Part shown: positions 6,310 to 63,947 of the stretch, piece by piece | How positions within the stretch are numbered: position 1 is the first letter of the stretch | Layout: each line of letters opens with the position of its first letter | DNA from: an uncultured bacterium | GTDB taxonomy: Bacteria; Patescibacteriota; Minisyncoccia; UBA6257; 2-01-FULL-56-20 | Direction of reading: 5' to 3' | Length of the DNA: 64,000 nucleotides | Assembly (NCBI GenBank): GCA_963725235.1 | Contig: CAVRXN010000003.1 | Span: forward strand, 75,204-139,203 | Position numbers and translations under genes: made by a program | Notes under the pieces: model-generated | Database searches by the model: none | What the model saw: the letters and a program-made list of their open reading frames with translations, nothing else | What the model was told of the DNA's origin: nothing

Positions 6310-6380
6310 GCGGGTATGGTTCAGTGGTAGAACGCGACCTTCCCAAGGTTGAGATAGGGGTCCGATTCCCCTTACCCGCT
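6310..6380 (+). tRNA. tRNA-Gly (anticodon CCC)
   Basis: 71-nt cloverleaf read by hand: acceptor GCGGGTA/TACCCGC, D arm GTTC-AGTGGTA-GAAC, anticodon loop TTCCCAA, T arm AGGGG-TCCGATT-CCCCT. No encoded CCA. Confidence 0.9.
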
Positions 6381-6383
6381 CAT

Positions 6384-6459
6384 CCAAAAGAAAAGCTGCA
6401 GGAAAAAGACGAAGAGGCATCAGAATGCATTCGCCTTTTTCCTGCAGCTTTTCTTTTGG
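6384..6459. repeat. perfect 25-bp inverted repeat with a 26-nt loop
   Basis: CCAAAAGAAAAGCTGCAGGAAAAAG (6384-6408) is exactly complementary to CTTTTTCCTGCAGCTTTTCTTTTGG (6435-6459). Starts 4 nt after the tRNA-Gly gene. Confidence 0.9.
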
Positions 6460-6498
6460 ACTCAGTTGGATGACGGGAATCGGACAAGGAAAGGGGTC

Positions 6499-7137: not shown

Positions 7138-7217
7138 CCGGCAAGAGAGAAGGTAGCAAAAAAACCGAGTCGGTTCTGACCGCTTCTCGGTTTTTTTGCT
7201 ACCTTCTCTTTTGCCGG
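7138..7217. terminator. dispersed hairpin element, copy 1 (long-stem bidirectional terminator abutting the fusA stop)
   Basis: Core A7-CCGAGTCGGTTCTGACCGCTTCTCGG-T7 (7158-7197). It is flanked by 20-nt complementary arms CCGGCAAGAGAGAAGGTAGC / GCTACCTTCTCTTTTGCCGG. Confidence 0.8.
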
Positions 7218-9356
7218 TTACCGCTTCTTCCCTTCTATAATCAGCTGCGCCACGTTGTTCGGCGCCGGCTCATAGTGATCAAATTCCATCGTAAATGAAC
7301 CGCGGCCCTGCGACATCGAACGGAGCTCCGTTGCGTAACCGAACAGTTCGGACAGCGGGATCTTCGCGTTAACGACTTTGAGACCCGGACGGTCGTCCAT
7401 CGATTCGATGCGGCCGCGCTTCGAGTTCACGTTGCCCGTCACCTCGCCCATGAAGTTGTCCGGGACGATGACCTGAATTTTCATGATCGGTTCGAGAATC
7501 ACCGGCTTCGCGCGCTTCGCGGCTTCCTGGAACGCCATCGAACCCGCGATCTTGAACGCCGCTTCGGATGAGTCGACTTCGTGGAACGAACCATCGTAGA
7601 GCGTCACTTCGACATCGACGACCGGATAGCCGGCGAGAATACCTTTGTCGAGCGCTTCTTTCACGCCCTTCTCGGTGGGGTCGATAAATTCTTTCGGGAT
7701 CGCGCCGCCTTTGATTTCGTCGAGGAACACGAATCCCGCACCGCGCTCGAGCGGCTTCACGCGCAGCCAGACATGGCCATACTGACCGCGGCCGCCGGAC
7801 TGCTTGATATATTTGCCTTCGGCTTCGGCTTCGCCGCATGATCGTTTCTTTGTACGCAACCTGCGGCCGGCCGACATTCGCGTCGACGTTGAATTCGCGC
7901 TTCATGCGGTCAACGATAATTTCCAAGTGCAGTTCGCCCATGCCGGAGATGATCGTCTCGCCCGTTTCGTTATCGCCCGCCACGCGGAACGTCGGATCTT
8001 CTTCGGCAAGACGATGCAAGCGCCGTACCCATTTTTTCCTGGTCGGCTTTCGTTTTCGGTTCGATGCGCAAGCCGATGACCGGTTCAGGGAATGTGATCT
8101 TTTCGAGAATGATCGGCGTGATCCGGATCGCAGAGCGTATCGCCGGTCGTCGTCTCTTTCAAGCCGACGATCGCCGCGATTTCGCCCGCGTAGATCTCTT
8201 CCACTTCTTCGCGCTGGTTGGCGTGCATGCCGAACGATGCGGCCGACGCGCTCCTGCACGCCTTTCGTCGAATTATAAATATATGAACCGCGTTTCAAGA
8301 CGCCGGAGTAAGCGCGGAAGAACGCCAAGTTGCCGACGAACGGGTCGGTTGCGATCTTGAATGCGAGGCCGGCGAACGGTTCGTCGTCGCTCGCGTGGCG
8401 CAACACTTCGGCGCCCGTTTTCTCGATCGTGCGCCCTTGACCGGCGGCAAATCGAGCGGCGACGGCAAGTATTCAACGACGGCGTCGAGCATGAACTGCA
8501 CGCCTTTGTTTTTGAGCGCCGAACCGCACAAAACCGGAACGATCGTGTTCGCGATGACCGCTTTGCGAAGCGTCCTCTGCAGGTCGTCGAGTCGAGATCT
8601 CTTTGCCATCGAGATACTCCGACATCACCGTCGTCGTCGTTCTCGGCAATTTTTTCGATGAGATCATGGCGCGCCTTTTCAACTTCCGCTTTCATATCCT
8701 CCGGAATCGGAATCTCGATGATCTTTTCGCCATGCTCGCCCTCAAAACTGTATGCTTTGTTTTCGAGCAAGCGCGACGACGCCTTTGAAATCGGACTTCC
8801 GTGCCGATCGGCAGCTGGATCGGAATCGCGTTCGGCGTCAGGCGGTCAATGATCGACTGGAAGCTCTTCTCGAAGCTCGCGCCGCATGCGGTCAAGTTTA
8901 TTGATAAAACAAATGCGCGGCACTTTATAATCGTCCGCATAGCGCCAGTTCGTTTCCGACTGCGGTTCGACGCCGGCGACGCCGTCGAAGACGACGACCG
9001 CGCCGTCGAGAACGCGCAGCGAGCGCTTCACTTCGACCGTGAAGTCGATGTGGCCCGGCGTGTCGATCAAGTTGATCTGATGTTCGTGCTTCTTGTGCTC
9101 GGCCGGCTCGCGCCGGCATATTCGTCGGCGTCCAGAACGCCGTCGTCGCGGCGCTCGTGATCGTGATGCCGCGCTCGCGCTCCTGTTCCATCCAGTCCAT
9201 GACCGTGTCGCCCGTGTGCACTTCGCCGATCTTGTGCGAAACGCCGGTATAAAAAAGCACCCGCTCGCTGACGGTCGTCTTGCCGGCATCAATGTGCGCG
9301 ATGATGCCGATGTTCCGAATTTTTTCGATAGGATAAGCTCGACCCATAATTTTCAT
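7218..9356 (-). pseudogene. fusA: elongation factor G, reading frame broken by many frameshifts
   Basis: EF-G segments are spread over at least 7 ORFs in different frames. N-terminus: [25 protein letters not shown]...[19 protein letters not shown]. Middle: [48 protein letters not shown]-terminus: 219 aa, GGRGQYGHV...MEFDHYEP. Confidence 0.9.
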
Positions 9357-25669: not shown

Positions 25670-26593
25670 ATGAACAAAACAATGGCAAGAACAGCGTTTA
25701 TCGTAGGCACGGCAGTCGTCGGTGCATTTTTGATTGTCACGGGCATCGCGAGCGCAGCGACGCTTGGCGTTGACGTTTCAGCGCAGGCAAATGTCGGCGC
25801 CAACGCCCACTTCCCGGGCAGCAACGGCGGTGCGCGTCCCCCGATGATGGGCGGCGGCATCTTCGGCACGGTCTCGGCAATCAACGGCACGACGCTGACG
25901 ATAACATCGAAGGGCTTCGCTGGCTTCGGCCGCCCGTCCTCGACGACTGGCTCAGCACCAACAACAGCCCCAGCCCCAACCACATATACGGTTAATGCGT
26001 CGAACGCGACCGTTACAAAAGGTGGTGCATCGAGCACGCTCTCAAGCGTCGCCGTCGGCGACACGGTAGTCGTGCGCGGCACGGTCAACGGAACGAGCAT
26101 AACGGCAACAGCCATTATGGATGGCGTCGTACCGGACGGAGCAAATCCCGGCGGCCCGATGATGCGCGGCGGCTTCGGTCGCGGACCGAATGGTTCGTCG
26201 ACCGGCATGTGGTCCGCATCTTCGACGGCACTCTTCCAGGGCAACGGTGAACCCGTCGTCGGTGGAACCGTGACGGCGATCAACGGATCGACAGTGACCA
26301 TTACGAACAAGAGCAACGTCACGTACACGATCGACGGGTCGGCCGCGGTCGTCGTCAAAGGCAATGTCTCGTCTTCGCTCAGCGCGGTGGCCGTCAATGA
26401 CAATGTCTTAGTGCAGGGCAACGTCAGCGGCACGAGCGTGACCGCGTCGACGATCCTTGACCAGGGTGCCGCAACTTCGGCAGGCACGAGCAGCGCGGGT
26501 CCGGGCAATTCGACGACTGCACACTTAAACGTTGTCGCCAAAATGTTCGGCGGCATCGGCGCATTCTTCCAGCATCTCTTCGGCTTCTTCTAA
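25670..26593 (+). CDS. secreted repeat protein (DUF5666-like repeats)
   Basis: 307 aa with a signal peptide. Three repeats of G.V.AINGTT.TIT.K...YTV.AS.A.V.KG...S.LS.VAVGD.V.V.G.V.GTS.TA..I. Confidence 0.75.
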   Translation: MNKTMARTAFIVGTAVVGAFLIVTGIASAATLGVDVSAQANVGANAHFPGSNGGARPPMMGGGIFGTVSAINGTTLTITSKGFAGFGRPSSTTGSAPTTAPAPTTYTVNASNATVTKGGASSTLSSVAVGDTVVVRGTVNGTSITATAIMDGVVPDGANPGGPMMRGGFGRGPNGSSTGMWSASSTALFQGNGEPVVGGTVTAINGSTVTITNKSNVTYTIDGSAAVVVKGNVSSSLSAVAVNDNVLVQGNVSGTSVTASTILDQGAATSAGTSSAGPGNSTTAHLNVVAKMFGGIGAFFQHLFGFF

Positions 26594-26698
26594 GCCCGAC
26601 GAAGGCACGATGAGGTAACAAAAAAACCGAGTCGGTTCTTACCGCTTCTCGGTTTTTTTGTTACCTCATCGTGCCTCACGTTCGACTAGAAGAAGCCG
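26581..26698. terminator. dispersed hairpin element, copy 2, with roughly 48-nt arms overlapping both convergent gene ends
   Basis: Core A7-CCGAGTCGGTTCTTACCGCTTCTCGG-T7 (26620-26659). Arms CGGCTTCTTCTA...GGCACGATGAGGTAAC / GTTACCTCATCGTGCC...TAGAAGAAGCCG. Confidence 0.8.
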
Positions 26699-27913
26699 AT
26701 TATATTTCGCCGTCCGCTCACCGCGCGCCGGAGCGCCGAGCTTTAGCCCATCGGCACCAACGCCGTAGGCAAAGTCCGCGATGAAATCATCGTTCGTCTC
26801 GCCGGAGCGATGTGACGCAACAACACCCCATCCATACCGGCGCGCAGCGCGAACCGCATCGAGTGCTTCCGAAACACTGCCGATCTGATTCGGTTTAATG
26901 ATGACGGCATTCACGCTCCCCTCCGCATGCGCCCGCTCCATCCGATGGACGTTCGTCGTAGTAAGATCGTCGCCCGTGATCCAAAATGGCGCAGCCTTTT
27001 TGCCGGTACGCGTCGCCACGCGGCGCGGCGCGGCACCATACTTCGCCGTAAATTTCGCGAACGCGGCAAAATCATTTTCCGGAAATGGGTCTTCGAGATA
27101 GATGAAGTCGTCGGCCTGAACCAACTTCGCATAGAGCGCCGGCATCGCGCCAAATCGCTCCTTCGCGATATCCGTCGCCGCCGCATCCATACCGAAATCG
27201 ACAACCTTCGACAATTTTAATTTTTTCGTAACCGCACGCAGCATCGTCAACGGTTCGAGGTTGTCGCGGAAATTCGGCGCAAAGCCGCCCTCATCGCCAA
27301 GGTTCGTCGCCTGTTTGCCAAGCCGTCGCTCGATCGTCATTTTCAGTTCATTATAAATTTGCACGCCGATCTCAACCGACTCCGCAAACGTTCGCGTTCG
27401 CGGAATGATGACGTATTCCTGGATATCAAGATTGCTGCCGCCATGCAAACCACCGTTGATAAGATTCATAAACAAACGCGGACGCGTGACCAAACGGCTT
27501 GATACAACCGGCATTCCATATACCTCGCGGATATATTTCCATAATGGAACATCGCGCGCCATCGCCGACGCACGCGCGAACGCAATCGAACAGGCAAGAA
27601 TCGCATTCGCACCGAGTCGCCGCTTATCCGCCGTCCCATCAAGTTTTATTAAAAAATCATCAAAAGCTTGTTGACTTTTGAACTCGGCACGAGCGGCCCG
27701 GCCGCCACCCCGAACAGCCGCCGCAATCCGCGTATTGATATTCCGAACCGCGACCGAAGCCGGCAATGCATGTGCTTCTGCCGCGCCCGTGCTCTTTCCC
27801 TCCGGAACCGACGCCGTCGCGCGAACGCCATTCGCCAGCTCGATTGTCGCTTCAACCGTCCACTCGGCCCGCGAATCGAGAATCGATCGCGCAGTCAGAG
27901 ATTTTATTTTCAT
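26666..27913 (-). CDS. eno: enolase
   Basis: 415 aa: ARSILDSRAEWTVEA...VPEGKSTGAAEA...IKPNQIGSVSEA...SHRSGETND. Confidence 0.93.
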   Translation of the reverse strand: MKIKSLTARSILDSRAEWTVEATIELANGVRATASVPEGKSTGAAEAHALPASVAVRNINTRIAAAVRGGGRAARAEFKSQQAFDDFLIKLDGTADKRRLGANAILACSIAFARASAMARDVPLWKYIREVYGMPVVSSRLVTRPRLFMNLINGGLHGGSNLDIQEYVIIPRTRTFAESVEIGVQIYNELKMTIERRLGKQATNLGDEGGFAPNFRDNLEPLTMLRAVTKKLKLSKVVDFGMDAAATDIAKERFGAMPALYAKLVQADDFIYLEDPFPENDFAAFAKFTAKYGAAPRRVATRTGKKAAPFWITGDDLTTTNVHRMERAHAEGSVNAVIIKPNQIGSVSEALDAVRAARRYGWGVVASHRSGETNDDFIADFAYGVGADGLKLGAPARGERTAKYNRLLLVEREAR

Positions 27914-40509: not shown

Positions 40510-41931
40510 CTACACCCTCCTCACGATCGCAAACGGCGTCATTTCGTCGGACTGGCCGAGCGGGTTGTCGCGGAACAGCTCGTTGATGAACGATTCGCTC
40601 GGCGCACCGCTTGTTTTGCCGAGCGAGAAAGCGCCGCGATAATTGGCATCGAGAATGATGACTTCATTAGTACCGCCGAGCGCTTCTTTTATTCGCCGGG
40701 CAGCACCGGATGGATCGTTCGGGGCGAGCTTGGCAGAATGCGCATATTCCAAAATCAAGAACGACATCGGGCAATCAATCGACTTTGCACGTTTTCCGCA
40801 GATACGATAAAACATACCCTTGATACCAAGAGGGCGAGTAAGAGCTGAGATCGCAGCAGCAAGGAGAACGCGCGGATAGCCGGCTTCCTCTATAAATAAC
40901 TGCATGGCGATAGGAGTGCCGTGACCAAAACCGTGGAATTGTTTCGAGCCGTAATAGGTGCCGACATTCCTCGCCAACAGTCGGGCAAGTCGTTGAGGGT
41001 GGATATCTTTCATATCCACTACTCTGCCCTGCGTGATCGTAAGAGCTTTCTCGCTTACAAAAACCATATCACCCGGCTTAACATAGGGCTTCACGTACGA
41101 CTCAACAAACGGCAAAATATCCGTATCTTCCATAGTTATCAACCGAGTTTTCACCGGCAAACGCTGATATGTAGCGCCATCGACATCGATGTCGATCTTT
41201 TTTCCGGGATTCGGCACGAAATCACCCGATGGCGGTCGCTGCTTTACCGGAGTGCGGGTGAAATCAACATGCTCCCCTCGAAACATTGCGAAGAGTGTTG
41301 AAAGAATTTTATAAATTGCCGCACTGTCATCCCCTGCCTTGGTCCGCGAACTCAGCGTCTCACTCGCCTCACTATATAAAATATGTGCTTCGTCTATTCC
41401 ATACTTACCGAATCGAGCTTCAATCGGCGCCATTCCTTCGCTGGTCGCCTGGACGACAACGCCCCCATCATCGAGCGGCGCATAATTGATAATGATTCCC
41501 GTTTTCTTTTTTTGTTCGTCGTAAATTTGATTCGTTTCTTTAAACCATTTAACCGTTACCGGTATCGCTTTATGCTTCTTAACCTCCGTTATCTGATTAT
41601 TCCCATCGACGAACACGACCACCGGATCCAAATCTTTCAGTTCACGTTCTTCAAGCCATGTTTCCGCAAGTATGATCACGAGATCACCGCGCTGAAAATG
41701 ATGGGCCGGCGGGCCATTCAGACAAATGTCTCCATTCCCTCGCGGCCCCGGTATGATATAGGTTTGCCAAAAAACGCCGTTCCTCAAGTTGGTTATATTT
41801 ACGTATTGAAACGGCTTCATGCCACACGCCTCAATCAGCGCCTCATCGATCGTTATCGAACCGACGTAATTCAAATCGGCTTCGGTAACAGTCGCCCGAT
41901 GTATTTTTGCCATGCAGGCCCGGATAAGCAT
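40510..41931 (-). CDS. panD: aspartate 1-decarboxylase (PanD) fused to a CofE-like (F420-0:gamma-glutamyl ligase family) domain
   Basis: The N-terminal 120 aa align with PanD (KIHRATVTEADLNYVGSITIDEAL...NGPPAHHFQRGDLVII). The C-terminal roughly 350 aa carry SEKALTITQGR, ILDANY and FRDNPLGQSDEMTP. Start chosen at MLIRACMAKIH. Confidence 0.7.
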   Translation of the reverse strand: MLIRACMAKIHRATVTEADLNYVGSITIDEALIEACGMKPFQYVNITNLRNGVFWQTYIIPGPRGNGDICLNGPPAHHFQRGDLVIILAETWLEERELKDLDPVVVFVDGNNQITEVKKHKAIPVTVKWFKETNQIYDEQKKKTGIIINYAPLDDGGVVVQATSEGMAPIEARFGKYGIDEAHILYSEASETLSSRTKAGDDSAAIYKILSTLFAMFRGEHVDFTRTPVKQRPPSGDFVPNPGKKIDIDVDGATYQRLPVKTRLITMEDTDILPFVESYVKPYVKPGDMVFVSEKALTITQGRVVDMKDIHPQRLARLLARNVGTYYGSKQFHGFGHGTPIAMQLFIEEAGYPRVLLAAAISALTRPLGIKGMFYRICGKRAKSIDCPMSFLILEYAHSAKLAPNDPSGAARRIKEALGGTNEVIILDANYRGAFSLGKTSGAPSESFINELFRDNPLGQSDEMTPFAIVRRV

Positions 41932-41970
41932 GGAAACATAATAGCGCAAAAACTTGCGTTTGTCATGTCT

Positions 41971-42094
41971 GGCGCGACGGTGGAGTTGCAACAAGGAGCA
42001 CAGAAGCTAACAAAAAACCGAGTCGGTTCTGACCGCTTCTCGGTTTTTTTAGTTCTAGCTTTGCTGCCTACTGAAGTTCCACCGTCGCTCCTGC
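41971..42094. terminator. dispersed hairpin element, copy 3, downstream of rplL with an inverted rplL-3'-end fragment
   Basis: Core A6-CCGAGTCGGTTCTGACCGCTTCTCGG-T7 (42012-42050). Left flank GGCGCGACGGTGGAGTTGCAA (41971-91) mirrors the rplL end GGAGCGACGGTGGAACTTCAG (42071-91, minus strand). Confidence 0.75.
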
Positions 42095-42436
42095 GTCCTC
42101 GAGCTTCTTCTTAATCTCCGCTGCTTCATCCTTCTTTGCACCTTCCTTCACCGTCTTCGGTGCACCGTCAACGAGATCCTTCGCTTCCTTGAGGCCAAGT
42201 GCCGGCGAAACCTCGCGCACTGCCTTGATGACAGCGAGCTTGTTCGCGCCTGCAGCTTTCAAAACAACGTTGAACGTATCCTTCTCTTCAGCGGCTGCAG
42301 CTCCTCCACCGGCTACCGGGGCGGCCATCGCTGCCGCTGAGATGCCAAACTTTTCCTCAAGCTTCTTTACGAGCTCCGCGAGCTCAACGACCGTGAGGGA
42401 CTCGACTTTCGTTATGATATCGTCGTAATTTGCCAT
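42068..42436 (-). CDS. rplL: 50S ribosomal protein L7/L12
   Basis: 122 aa: [24 protein letters not shown]...LKEAKDLVD...[19 protein letters not shown]. Confidence 0.95.
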
Positions 42437-61868: not shown

Positions 61869-62567
61869 TCAATTAGAAGTCATGCTCGAGGAGGTAAATT
61901 GGAATGTCGAAAGCATCTTCTCATACATAGGATTATAGGGTGACTCTTGGCCATCGGAACCTGCGATTTCATACTCTACCGTTGCCATATCTGCACCATG
62001 GAGGATATATGTATGTAGTTCAGCGATGATATCGTCAGTTACAAAGTTGTAAGCGGGATAGCCATTGATCGTTAGCGTGCTCGTCGCATCGAGGTCGTCA
62101 ATATTGCCCACCGCAGCATCCTCATCTACCTGACTCAATAGTTGATTTGTAGATAAAAGATTTGGATTGCCATCCTTCACAAAAGAGACGGTAAAATAAC
62201 TTGTGTAATCCCGAGCCTCTGCATCGCTGAAGTTAATACTCCCATCCTGATTATTGATAACGTACCAGTTGCTCGGATACTGCATTTGAAACCCGTAGTG
62301 CTGATTTGTATATGTTTGCCAATGCGAAGTATCAACCGTAGTTGTTTCACCAACAGGAGATTGAGCAACAGCAGTAGTCGTATTGATCGCCGTTAGATTT
62401 TGCGATGTCGTCGAAGTCGTTATAGCGGTAGTCTTGCAACACGGCGGATTTTGAGATTGCGAAACGCTTGCATTACTATTCCAAACAAAATATCCCACCG
62501 CGCCAACAACCACAATCACGGCGATCATGCCAATTACAATCAGAGGCGAAAAACCCTTTCGATTCAT
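61869..62567 (-). CDS. hypothetical secreted/anchored protein (232 aa) between tuf and rpsJ
   Basis: N-terminal TM anchor (PLIVIGMIAVIVVVGAVGYFVW), Thr/Ser-rich linker and a globular C-terminal domain. Confidence 0.55.
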   Translation of the reverse strand: MNRKGFSPLIVIGMIAVIVVVGAVGYFVWNSNASVSQSQNPPCCKTTAITTSTTSQNLTAINTTTAVAQSPVGETTTVDTSHWQTYTNQHYGFQMQYPSNWYVINNQDGSINFSDAEARDYTSYFTVSFVKDGNPNLLSTNQLLSQVDEDAAVGNIDDLDATSTLTINGYPAYNFVTDDIIAELHTYILHGADMATVEYEIAGSDGQESPYNPMYEKMLSTFQFTSSSMTSN

Positions 62568-62661
62568 GCTTTAAGTATAACAAACCACGAGCCAGCAAAA
62601 ATAAAAATCGCCCTCTTCGGGGATCGCGCAGGCGGCGAAGGCCGCCGCTCTCCAACCAATA

Positions 62662-62737
62662 CAAAAAACAAAAAAGGGGCTCTTCTGGAAGGACTAAATC
62701 CCTAAGTCCTGACAGAAGAGCCCCTTTTTTGTTTTTT
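62662..62737. terminator. long-stem terminator after tuf
   Basis: GGGGCTCTTCTG (62676-87) pairs with CAGAAGAGCCCC (62713-24). Flanked by A- and T-runs. Confidence 0.75.
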
Positions 62738-62740
62738 GCC

Positions 62741-63947
62741 TTATTTATTGATCTTCGTCACGACTCCGGCGCCGACGGTATTGCCGCCTTCGCGGATAGC
62801 GAAGCGCATCTTCTCTTCGAGGGCAACCGGGGTGATGAGCTTAACGCCAATCTTCACGGTATCGCCCGGCATGACCATTTCCATTCCTTCCGGCAAGAGT
62901 AACTTCGCCGGTCACGTCCGTGGTGCGGATGTAGAACTGCGGCTTGTAACCCTTGAAGAACGGAGAGTGGCGGCCACCTTCCTCTTTCGAAAGCACGTAG
63001 ATCTCGGCTTCGAATTCCGAGTGCGGCGTAACCGTTCCCGGCTTCGCGAGCACCTGACCGCGCTCGACATCTTCTTTCTTCAAACCGCGGAGCAAGCAAG
63101 CCGACGTTATCGCCTGCCTGACCGCTGATCCAAAAGCTTGTTGAACATTTCGATGCCGGTGACGACGGTCTTCGCCGTCGGGCGCAAGACCGACGATCTC
63201 GATTTCTTCGTTCACTTTCACCTTACCGCGCTCGATGCGGCCAGTAACGACCGTACCGCGGCCTTCGATCGAGAAGATGTCTTCGATCGGCATAAGGAAC
63301 GGCTTGTCGAGATCGCGAACCGGATCCGGGAAGAAGTCATCCATCGCCTTCACGAGGTCGAGGATCGGCTTCGCATCGGCATCATCAGCCGACTTCGCGT
63401 TCAAGCGCTTTCAAGCGCCGAACCGCGGATAACCGGGGTCGTGTCGCCCGGGAAGTCCCACTTCTTCAAGAAGCTCGCGGACTTCGGACTCAACGAGGTC
63501 AATCAATTCCGGATCATCAACCATGTCCACTTTGTTCAAGAAGACAATGATCGACGGCACGCCAACCTGGCGGGCGAGCAAGATGTGTTCGCGGGTCTGC
63601 GGCATCGGACCATCCGTCGCGGCAACGACGAGAACCGCACCGTCCATCTGGGCGGCACCCGTGATCATGTTCTTAATATAGTCAGCGTGACCCGGAGCAT
63701 CAACGTGCGCATAGTGGCGCTTCTCCGATTCATACTCCGAGTGATGCAAAGCGATCGTGATACCACGCGCTTTTTCTTCCGGAGCATTGTCGATCTGGTC
63801 AACTTTCTCTTCTTTTTTGCCCAACCCTTCATAAACAAAACGTGCGTGATCGCCGCGGTCAAGGTCGTCTTGCCGTGGTCGACGTGTCCGATCGTACCGA
63901 CGTTCAAGTGCGGCTTCGAGCGGTCAGAATTTTTCTTTTTCTGCCAT
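62741..63947 (-). pseudogene. tuf: elongation factor Tu, at least 5 frameshifts
   Basis: MAEKEKF then a 1-nt insertion. [20 protein letters not shown] (80-aa ORF). [31 protein letters not shown] (137-aa ORF). [25 protein letters not shown]...[24 protein letters not shown] (187-aa ORF). C-terminus ...GVVTKINK*. Confidence 0.92.

Follow-up and report, generated by a model that had tools for sequence, protein, structure and literature searches.

An inverted copy of the rplL 3' end opposite a palindromic terminator keeps an earlier synonymous spelling of the gene

A 64,000-nt stretch of contig CAVRXN010000003.1 from an uncultured bacterium (Ca. Paceibacterota, to judge from the names that its rplL homologues bear; the whole stretch is called the window here) contains rplL, the gene of ribosomal protein L7/L12, followed by a palindrome with a predicted terminator at its centre. 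We found that the far side of this palindrome carries a 24-nt inverted copy of the last seven codons and stop of rplL, which we call the relic, that its spelling is common in related genomes, and that three of the nucleotides in which gene and copy now differ changed on the side of the gene. The relic is probably the product of a local extension of the palindrome via replication template switching in an ancestor, after which the two sides diverged. Read from rplL outwards, the parts of the palindrome are the following.

42068 to 42436, minus strand: rplL (ribosomal protein L7/L12), intact, 122 aa, with Pfam domains PF16320 (Ribosomal_L12_N) and PF00542 (Ribosomal_L12); homologues are 100-74% identical
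42068 to 42091, minus strand: last seven codons and stop of rplL, GGA GCG ACG GTG GAA CTT CAG TAG; the palindrome's outer right arm, the source-side copy, whose spelling is now a derived one
42051 to 42067, unstranded: rplL-proximal non-coding arm, GCAGCAAAGCTAGAACT in the sense of rplL; the arm of the relative L006 is the closest (21/24), and the independent contig L001 confirms it
42012 to 42050, unstranded: core, a predicted bidirectional intrinsic-terminator hairpin, A6-CCGAG, 16-nt tip TCGGTTCTGACCGCTT, CTCGG-T7
41995 to 42011, unstranded: distal non-coding arm, GGAGCACAGAAGCTAAC; complement of the proximal arm with one mismatch and three indels
41971 to 41994, plus strand: relic, the inverted rplL 3'-end copy, GGC GCG ACG GTG GAG TTG CAA CAA; a spelling common among relatives

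An inverted rplL end in the spelling of relatives

The relic and the rplL tail form the outermost arms of an imperfect palindrome of ~120 nt, in which a repeat search finds an inverted repeat of 33 nt (41971-42003 / 42059-42091, 73% complementary) around a perfect inner stem (42012-42022 / 42039-42049). The two match at 17 of 24 positions with an exact run of 11 nt and zero register offset from the palindrome arms, and the chance of such a match at random axes in the window is P ~1e-4 to 2e-4. The copy is a reverse complement, contiguous and in register with the arms at 41995-42067, as is an inverted-repeat extension by template switching. Its similarity to rplL ends exactly at 41971, at the GG of codon 116, with nothing further, and no rplL-like 21-mers occur in the window besides the gene and the relic. 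The original prediction, made from the letters of this DNA, had described an inverted copy encoding G A T V E L Q opposite the end of rplL, and this is borne out (P ~1e-4). The left arm was copied from an rplL 3' end and not assembled as a stem by point mutations.

The five differences within the seven sense codons fall at codon positions 3, 3, 1, 3 and 3 and are all synonymous, as had been noticed; under random substitution or column shuffling such a pattern has P = 3.5e-4 to 9e-4. The eighth codon, which the first description passed over, reads CAA in the relic where rplL has its stop TAG, and adds two differences, one of them 'non-synonymous', for a total of 7/24. At the level of RNA the five differences weaken pairing, again as stated, with four mismatches (A.G, A.C, C.A and U.C) and one G.U.

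Nine distinct rplL loci of relatives, at 90-98% protein identity, were obtained through exact-protein look-ups. A metagenome scan with the rplL protein was uninformative on the relic, all of the matches listed having identities of at most 69%. The gene ends that matter here read as follows.

L006: GGG GCG ACG GTG GAG TTG CAG TAA
L007: GGG GCG ACG GTG GAG TTG CAG TAG
L003: GGG GCG ACG GTT GAG TTG CAG TAA
L189: GGA GCG ACA GTG GAG TTG CAG TAA
L190: GGA GCG CAG GTG GAG TTG CAA TAA
L197: GGA GCG ACG GTG GAA TTG CAG TAG
L192: GGA GCA CAG GTG GAG CTT CAA TAA
L002: GGA GCG CAG GTT GAA CTT CAG TAA

GAG TTG is the state in L003, L006, L007, L189 and L190, and GAA CTT occurs only in the window and in L002, so that the GAG TTG of the relic, and even its CAA in place of CAG, are genuine rplL spellings among relatives (Ca. 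Paceibacterota). The relic shares a core of 17 nt, GCGACGGTGGAGTTGCA, identically with the rplL ends of L006 and L007, from which it differs at 2 of 21 positions, against 5 of 21 from the rplL of its own window. In agreement, when the relic was compared by blastn with 1.2 Mb of fetched DNA, the best matches were the rplL ends of L006 and L007 (17/17, E=0.002), and its own rplL gave 11 nt.

By outgroup polarity, it was the gene that changed in GAG->GAA and TTG->CTT, which account for 3 nt among the five differences. The reading of the same sequences places CAG->CAA and stop->CAA on the relic side, and leaves the polarity of GGN ambiguous. The three gene-side differences are silent because selection on rplL permits only silent changes. 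After polarising, two or three changes fall to the relic, two of them silent and one destroying the stop, and 2/3 silent changes have P ~0.16; an imprint of purifying selection on the relic's own lineage, as expected for a remnant of a second rplL gene, was thus not seen. Taken with the polarity, this means that the all-synonymous pattern requires no coding constraint on the relic, contrary to what had been supposed, and its own changes (GGN->GGC, CAG->CAA and stop->CAA) are compatible with neutral drift. In this sense, the earlier opposition between a relic of a second rplL and local template switching fails, since a local copy made in the GAG TTG state and followed by silent changes in the gene gives the same pattern.

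The idea of a relic of a second, diverged rplL 3' end stands in part: the relic does represent a different 'allele', its core being that of L006 and L007, but no second or convergent rplL, no longer inverted piece of rplL and no fragment like the relic as a whole was found in the nine distinct relatives' loci, where such copies had been proposed as a check. The blastn check proposed at the same time likewise gave the 17/17 match described above, and no full relic in any sampled relative. The relic is missing from L007, L003 and L002, in which, however, the genes downstream are arranged differently. L006, whose genes are arranged as in the window, has only CAG CAA in common with the relic, plus an ambiguous remnant of at most 6-12 nt, and MAFFT places a 13-nt gap there. 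We also considered a relic with 11-13 nt deleted in L006 (TTGCTG/TCGGGC), and rejected it for too few flanking matches around the gap, so only CAG CAA is taken as shared.

These observations bear on a larger inverted duplication, in which two convergent rplL genes or a long inverted segment once existed and the second copy was deleted save for its last 24 nt. An all-silent pattern would be expected if the second copy had been functional for a time, and the junction has an inversion history, the orientation of panD varying among relatives. However, polarity already explains the silent pattern, none of the nine relatives has a second rplL or a longer inverted piece, the likeness to rplL does not go past the GG of codon 116, and a single rplL-like 21-mer exists in the window besides the gene. 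We therefore regard such a duplication as quite improbable. The general option of an ancient inverted duplication, which the original prediction had also offered, is the one that we prefer, in the form of a local extension of the palindrome.

Palindromic terminators and their outer arms

The core of the palindrome is one of three copies of a hairpin in the window, referred to as copy 3. Read in the rplL sense it consists of CCGAG, the tip, CUCGG and U6, 24 nt after the stop, and the tip is itself a 4-bp stem with a CAGA loop. The fold of 42005-42075 (minus strand) has -20.9 kcal/mol and z = -2.8 and combines a stem-loop with a U-tract, as does an intrinsic terminator. A terminator scan flags the plus-strand version; the minus-strand one goes unflagged since the scan takes loops of at most 8 nt. 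The 36-nt core at 42013-48 recurs identically at 7160-7195 and with one mismatch at 26622-26657, where 0 occurrences are expected by chance, and the arms of the three copies are loosely alignable for ~29 nt. A sister hairpin of different sequence lies beside a tRNA gene.

7138 to 7217, unstranded: hairpin copy 1, which follows the fusA stop directly and has the same core between 32-nt arms with one mismatch; it lacks an outer inverted copy
26580 to 26699, unstranded: hairpin copy 2, between a convergent DUF5666-like gene and eno, with perfect 29-nt arms at 26603-26676 and an outer 13-nt inverted repeat
6360 to 6485, unstranded: tRNA-Gly(CCC) sister hairpin, inner arms 6383-6413 / 6430-6460, tip GCAT-CAGA-ATGC

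We found that the extension of a terminator palindrome into a gene end is not confined to rplL. In the tRNA-Gly hairpin the outer arm at 6468-6485 is an inverted copy of the T-arm/acceptor 3' end of the tRNA at 6360-6377 (15/18, with an 11-nt exact run); its sequence differs from that of the core and its architecture is the same, with RAG, a 4-bp stem, a CAGA loop and A, flanked by A/T tracts. The perfect arms of copy 2 take in the last three codons and stop of eno and, past a mismatched patch of 10 nt, are followed by an exact 13-nt inverted repeat, TCGGCTTCTTCTA (26580-26592 / 26687-26699), which is found at 47.5 nt from the axis on either side, within the coding ends of both convergent genes. 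Altogether, exact in-register outer inverted runs of at least 11 nt are present at 3/9 palindromic terminators in the window, namely at the tRNA-Gly 3' end, the eno/DUF5666 ends and the rplL tail, with a null probability of 2e-4 for each.

Relatives show the same behaviour at the end of rplL. In L002 the rplL terminator palindrome (L002:5896-5979) has perfect arms of 34 nt; they reach over the stop and final codons of a convergent N_methyl/Laminin_G_3 (LamG/pilin-like) gene, and the mirror copy of these codons stands beside the rplL stop. In L006, the perfect arms of 31 nt extend into the rplL stop and, past one mismatch, take in the last codon; its far side reads CAG CAA, with the same T->C change of the stop as in the window. 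Perfect arms of 28-34 nt beyond the T-tract were found in copies 1 and 2, L002, L003 and L006. The tip is flipped, as in a spacer inversion, in L003-L005 relative to the window, L006 and L002 (L003:898-913 against window 42023-42038), reading in the rplL sense TCGGTTCTTACCGCTT in L003 and AAGCGGTCAGAACCGA in the window, and the L003 core is the variant of window copy 2 (T instead of G). Both homogenisation of arms and inversion of the tip, the signatures of template switching, are therefore seen among related copies.

Some further observations concern the genes at copy 2. The C-terminus FGFF* of the DUF5666-like protein is kept in L006 and L002, with GGA against GGC in the window. The window enolase ends in YNRLLLVEREAR (tail LLLVEREAR), where relatives have YNRLL(E/Q/A)IE.. 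(LLEIEKE..), and the deviant Leu codon CTA lengthens the palindrome. To judge from these sequences, it looks as if palindrome growth at copy 2 was filtered by selection in two genes at once. A further long palindromic terminator of unrelated sequence lies at 62654-62746 (42-nt arms, 6 mismatches, 9-nt loop), overlapping the end of a plus-strand open reading frame (62400-62705).

As a dispersed element of the MITE/REP kind, the hairpin shows near-identical copies (the 36-nt core at three loci), and the flanks of copies 1 and 2 contain no direct target-site duplications; the repeats that flank copies 2 and 3 are inverted, not direct. Rfam has no family for it and returned only a sub-threshold snoRNA chance match. 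As a hairpin, the tip motif is absent from 185,579 species-representative genomes, searched with a degenerate tip pattern, and from viral contigs, searched with the core. The tip-pattern matches in the species representatives were discarded, as they are 101 single ones across unrelated phyla, and the two from Patescibacteria (L092 and L115) are not hairpins. These representatives apparently do not include the genome from which the window comes.

In this sense, we suggest, as a speculation with a minor chance of being right, that these palindromic terminators of ~80 nt with an NNNN-CAGA-N'N'N'N' tip may form a self-homogenising, possibly mobile family specific to this Paceibacterota lineage, whose arms would repeatedly grow outward by fold-back copying, overwriting intergenic DNA and sometimes gene 3' ends and archiving 'fossil' spellings of gene ends. 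If true, palindromic terminators would be an active source of change in C-termini and 3' untranslated regions in the streamlined genomes of the Candidate Phyla Radiation (CPR), and more than passive signals.

Origin and role of the copy

The sequence of events that probably produced the relic is the following. An ancestral rplL would have ended in ...GGN GCG ACG GTG GAG TTG CAR TAR. The nascent strand would have formed a fold-back at the hairpin and, by intramolecular template switching (quasipalindrome 'correction'), copied its own complement, and this fold-back copy would have written the inverted last seven codons and stop of rplL, 24 nt, onto the far side, replacing intergenic DNA. The resident rplL would then have changed silently (GAG->GAA, TTG->CTT and probably GGG->GGA), either through accumulated silent mutations or, given their tight cluster, through a short tract imported from a more diverged relative by recombination. 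The far copy would have drifted neutrally (GGN->GGC, CAG->CAA, stop->CAA) and kept the older GAG TTG. Both the copying mechanism and its timing we infer from the pattern.

What points to a local and recurrent process is that in-register copies recur at tRNA-Gly, at eno/DUF5666, in L002 and in L006. For the same reason a one-off arrival together with the terminator by transfer, as had been proposed, is less likely, given the copies at other terminators of the window. Furthermore, the far arms lie past the A/T tracts and would be outside the terminated RNA, so their perfection is not kept by selection on termination at the RNA level, which argues for a homogenising process at the level of DNA.

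The end of rplL is itself unusual. A codon alignment otherwise puts the window rplL nearest to L007 and L003, from which it differs by 5-6%. Of the differences from L007/L003, 8 (29%) fall in the final 28 nt (42068-42095), compared with 18-20/338 elsewhere; the maximum chi-square breakpoint falls after nt 338 of rplL, with a permutation P=0.004. One change in this cluster is non-synonymous, giving D115 in place of the E or A of relatives. It is possible that the cluster is a short recombination tract that ends at the terminator.

Several points weigh against a local extension followed by divergence. At the rplL end the changes are denser (29%) than the divergence to any sampled relative, so that none of these stands out as a donor. 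The full relic is in no sampled relative. The 24 nt contain no indels, compared with three between the neighbouring non-coding arms, an asymmetry that is better fitted by divergence arriving mostly at once on the gene side through recombination than by gradual drift on two sides. Finally, identical 36-nt cores at three unrelated loci (apart from the mismatch of copy 2) indicate more than simple vertical descent, such as gene conversion or mobility, and exchange among cores leaves room for an import of the far side.

In that case, the rplL end of a diverged relative, together with its proximal arm and core, would have recombined in flipped orientation through the shared core. The identity of the relic core with the rplL ends of L006 and L007 agrees with this, and so do the cores, which being identical at three loci and near-identical in L003 appear to be exchanged or homogenised, the high fluidity of gene order beside rplL in the clade, and the seven codons with silent changes only and no indels. 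However, an import requires, besides an inverted pairing via the asymmetric 16-nt tip, a second junction at 41970/41971 that would be illegitimate. Moreover, the CAA in place of the stop does not correspond to a functional allele, and the far side of L006 has the same T->C; the distal arm aligns at ~19/26 with all sampled proximal arms, with no clear nearest one; and the in-register copies at the tRNA and eno hairpins, which argue for a local process, would be left unexplained. We consider this import unlikely. A reading of the distal arm as specifically L007-like was also dropped, because the alignment of ~19/26 to every candidate is not robust.

Under a local extension, the relic is probably a harmless, non-functional scar, and the predicted functional unit at the locus is the core bidirectional terminator. 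The relic lies beyond the predicted U-tract (~42005-42017) and would not be transcribed by a terminating RNA polymerase, so it would have no part in the terminator stem of the finished rplL mRNA. Besides this position, a lack of function is suggested by the pairing-breaking differences, which are uncompensated, and by the relic being largely absent in L006 and missing in L007, L003 and L002. A plus-strand open reading frame of 243 aa that reads through the relic was rejected as a gene, as it runs antisense to panD, matches no Pfam family and lacks a counterpart in L006; being neither conserved nor related to a known domain, it also speaks for a relic without function.

The least credible of the explanations is that the rplL tail and its complement were selected as an outer stem of RNA or DNA, for example as an RNase III site of read-through transcripts or for the stability of the terminator; complementarity alone would then account for the coding-like look of the relic. 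The minimum free energy fold of the 181-nt region does include an 11-bp outer helix (-66 kcal/mol, z = -4.2), and long stems recur in the hairpin family. Nevertheless, the far arm lies beyond the U-tract and would thus be absent from terminated transcripts, 4/5 changes break pairs and none is compensated, L006 has the 13-nt gap, and the region is absent in L007, L003 and L002.

Setting of the locus and comparison with known systems

Downstream of the hairpin, in the rplL sense, the order is distal arm, relic, a promoter-like site and the panD fusion gene.

41938 to 41966, minus strand: promoter-like site ATGACA-17-TATTAT for the panD fusion gene (promoter scan, 10/12 matches), directly downstream of the relic in the rplL sense
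40510 to 41931, minus strand: panD (aspartate 1-decarboxylase) fused to an F420-ligase-like domain, 473 aa, Pfam PF02261 (6e-39) and PF01996 (8e-9)

The relic is 5 nt upstream of the -35 of the promoter-like site (41966-41938, minus strand), which agrees with its earlier placement in the upstream region of the panD fusion gene. The predicted start codon of this gene, at 41931, follows from the N-terminus MLIRACMAKIHR common to L006 and L002. The predicted -10 ends only ~7 nt before the ATG at 41931 (site at 41929-41943, minus strand), and so short a spacing suggests a putative leaderless or near-leaderless mRNA. Homologues of the PanD/F420-ligase-like fusion at 70-79% identity occur in other contexts (L198 and L199); they are not beside rplL and so say nothing about the relic.

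Which genes follow rplL varies greatly among genomes whose L7/L12 proteins are 90-98% identical. PanD is encoded by a standalone, convergent gene in L003-5, L189 and L192-4 and by a fused, co-directional one in the window as well as in L006 and L002. L002 and L003 carry an insertion of one or two LamG/pilin-like genes after rplL, and PQQ_2 or TylF genes hold the place after rplL in L007, L190 and L197.

Independent short-read contigs from the same population end inside the palindromes, L001 (L001:1251-1298) in copy 3 and L200 (L200:1966-2016) in copy 2; L200 is a contig of the same strain, from a look-up of a 93%-identical enolase. These palindromes act as assembly breakpoints. Elsewhere in the window, fusA (EF-G; 7218-9350, minus strand) has ~10 frameshifts, with EF-G-like segments across all three frames and intact neighbouring genes, so that either the assembly is poor locally or this essential gene is decaying into a pseudogene.

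The relic could in principle be an artefact, if the assembly had crossed the palindrome wrongly and joined the rplL end of another strain in reverse. The breaks of L001 and L200 within these palindromes, the spelling of the relic, which is that of another strain, and the doubt that the fusA frameshifts cast on local assembly quality would fit such an error. But a chimera would run on into the body of the other rplL, and here similarity ends after 24 nt and is followed by the panD promoter, syntenic with L006. In addition, CAA as a stop is in no real rplL examined, the far-side copy begins in the same way (CAG CAA) in L006, an independent assembly, and a strain chimera cannot account for the analogous outer repeats of the tRNA and eno hairpins. 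We judge an artefact very improbable, more so than the larger inverted duplication discussed above.

Taken alone, the relic is probably a neutral scar, whose value is that of a clean natural example. It illustrates that long terminator palindromes can reach into the coding end of an adjoining essential gene, and that a mirror copy can outlast the original spelling and thereby date and polarise the silent changes of the gene. It also cautions that an 'all-synonymous' pattern between a gene and a fragment need not imply that the fragment was once a gene. The hairpin family with its recurrent outward growth into gene ends is a more interesting lead than the relic. If the recurrence seen at tRNA-Gly, eno/DUF5666, rplL and the LamG gene of L002 were genome-wide, template switching at terminators would be a measurable force on gene ends in small CPR genomes, and the palindromes would also be a practical cause of assembly breaks, since short-read contigs end inside them.

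Homogenisation of inverted-repeat arms and inversion of the spacer are described signatures of template switching between inverted repeats (PMC8604942). Template switching during replication can create and maintain RNA hairpins (PMC8794818), the expansion of inverted repeats by this route is documented (PMC13100816), and quasipalindrome-associated mutation is described in E. coli (PMC7202029). The locus resembles these cases in several respects: an existing repeat is extended in one step by an in-register inverted copy of the neighbouring sequence, recently homogenised arms are perfect (copies 1 and 2, L006 and L002), lineages differ in the orientation of the tip (L003 against the window), and changes are clustered on one side. 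It differs from published cases in its template, here the 3' coding end of rplL, an essential ribosomal protein gene, and in another part of the window a tRNA 3' end, and in a copy old enough to fossilise an earlier synonymous spelling, with the event inferred rather than reconstructed on a tree. To our knowledge, template switching of this kind has not been reported for a CPR bacterium (Ca. Paceibacterota).

Bidirectional intrinsic (Rho-independent) terminators, which Ju, Li and Liu are said to have described in 2019, are likewise similar to the hairpins of the window, which have a GC-containing stem, an A-tract upstream and a T-tract downstream, and lie right after the stops of co-directional or convergent genes. 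Unlike such terminators, the hairpins have perfect or near-perfect arms that continue 20-30 nt past the A/T tracts into coding sequence, none of which termination needs, and a conserved tip with RAG, a 4-bp stem, a CAGA or AAGA loop and A.

Dispersed palindromic intergenic repeats include REP/BIME and the MITE-like Correia, RUP and ERIC elements. The hairpin shares with them a palindromic unit of ~75-80 nt at gene ends, of which the 64 kb contain 3 copies sharing an identical 36-nt core. It departs from these repeats in that copies 1 and 2 are without direct target-site duplications, in its absence as a hairpin from the 185,579 species-representative genomes and viral contigs, and in the rplL terminators of relatives, which are variant stems with compensatory changes; judged from their sequences, these variant stems look like vertical descent plus conversion rather than insertion.

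Finally, the relic can be set beside gene-fragment relics, the short pseudogene pieces that duplication or rearrangement leaves behind. It is unlike them in comprising 24 nt only, in being inverted and placed by the axis of a palindrome, and in having no recognisable duplication of a longer segment as its source. As they do, it forms a non-functional piece beside its parent that shows an earlier state of the parent.

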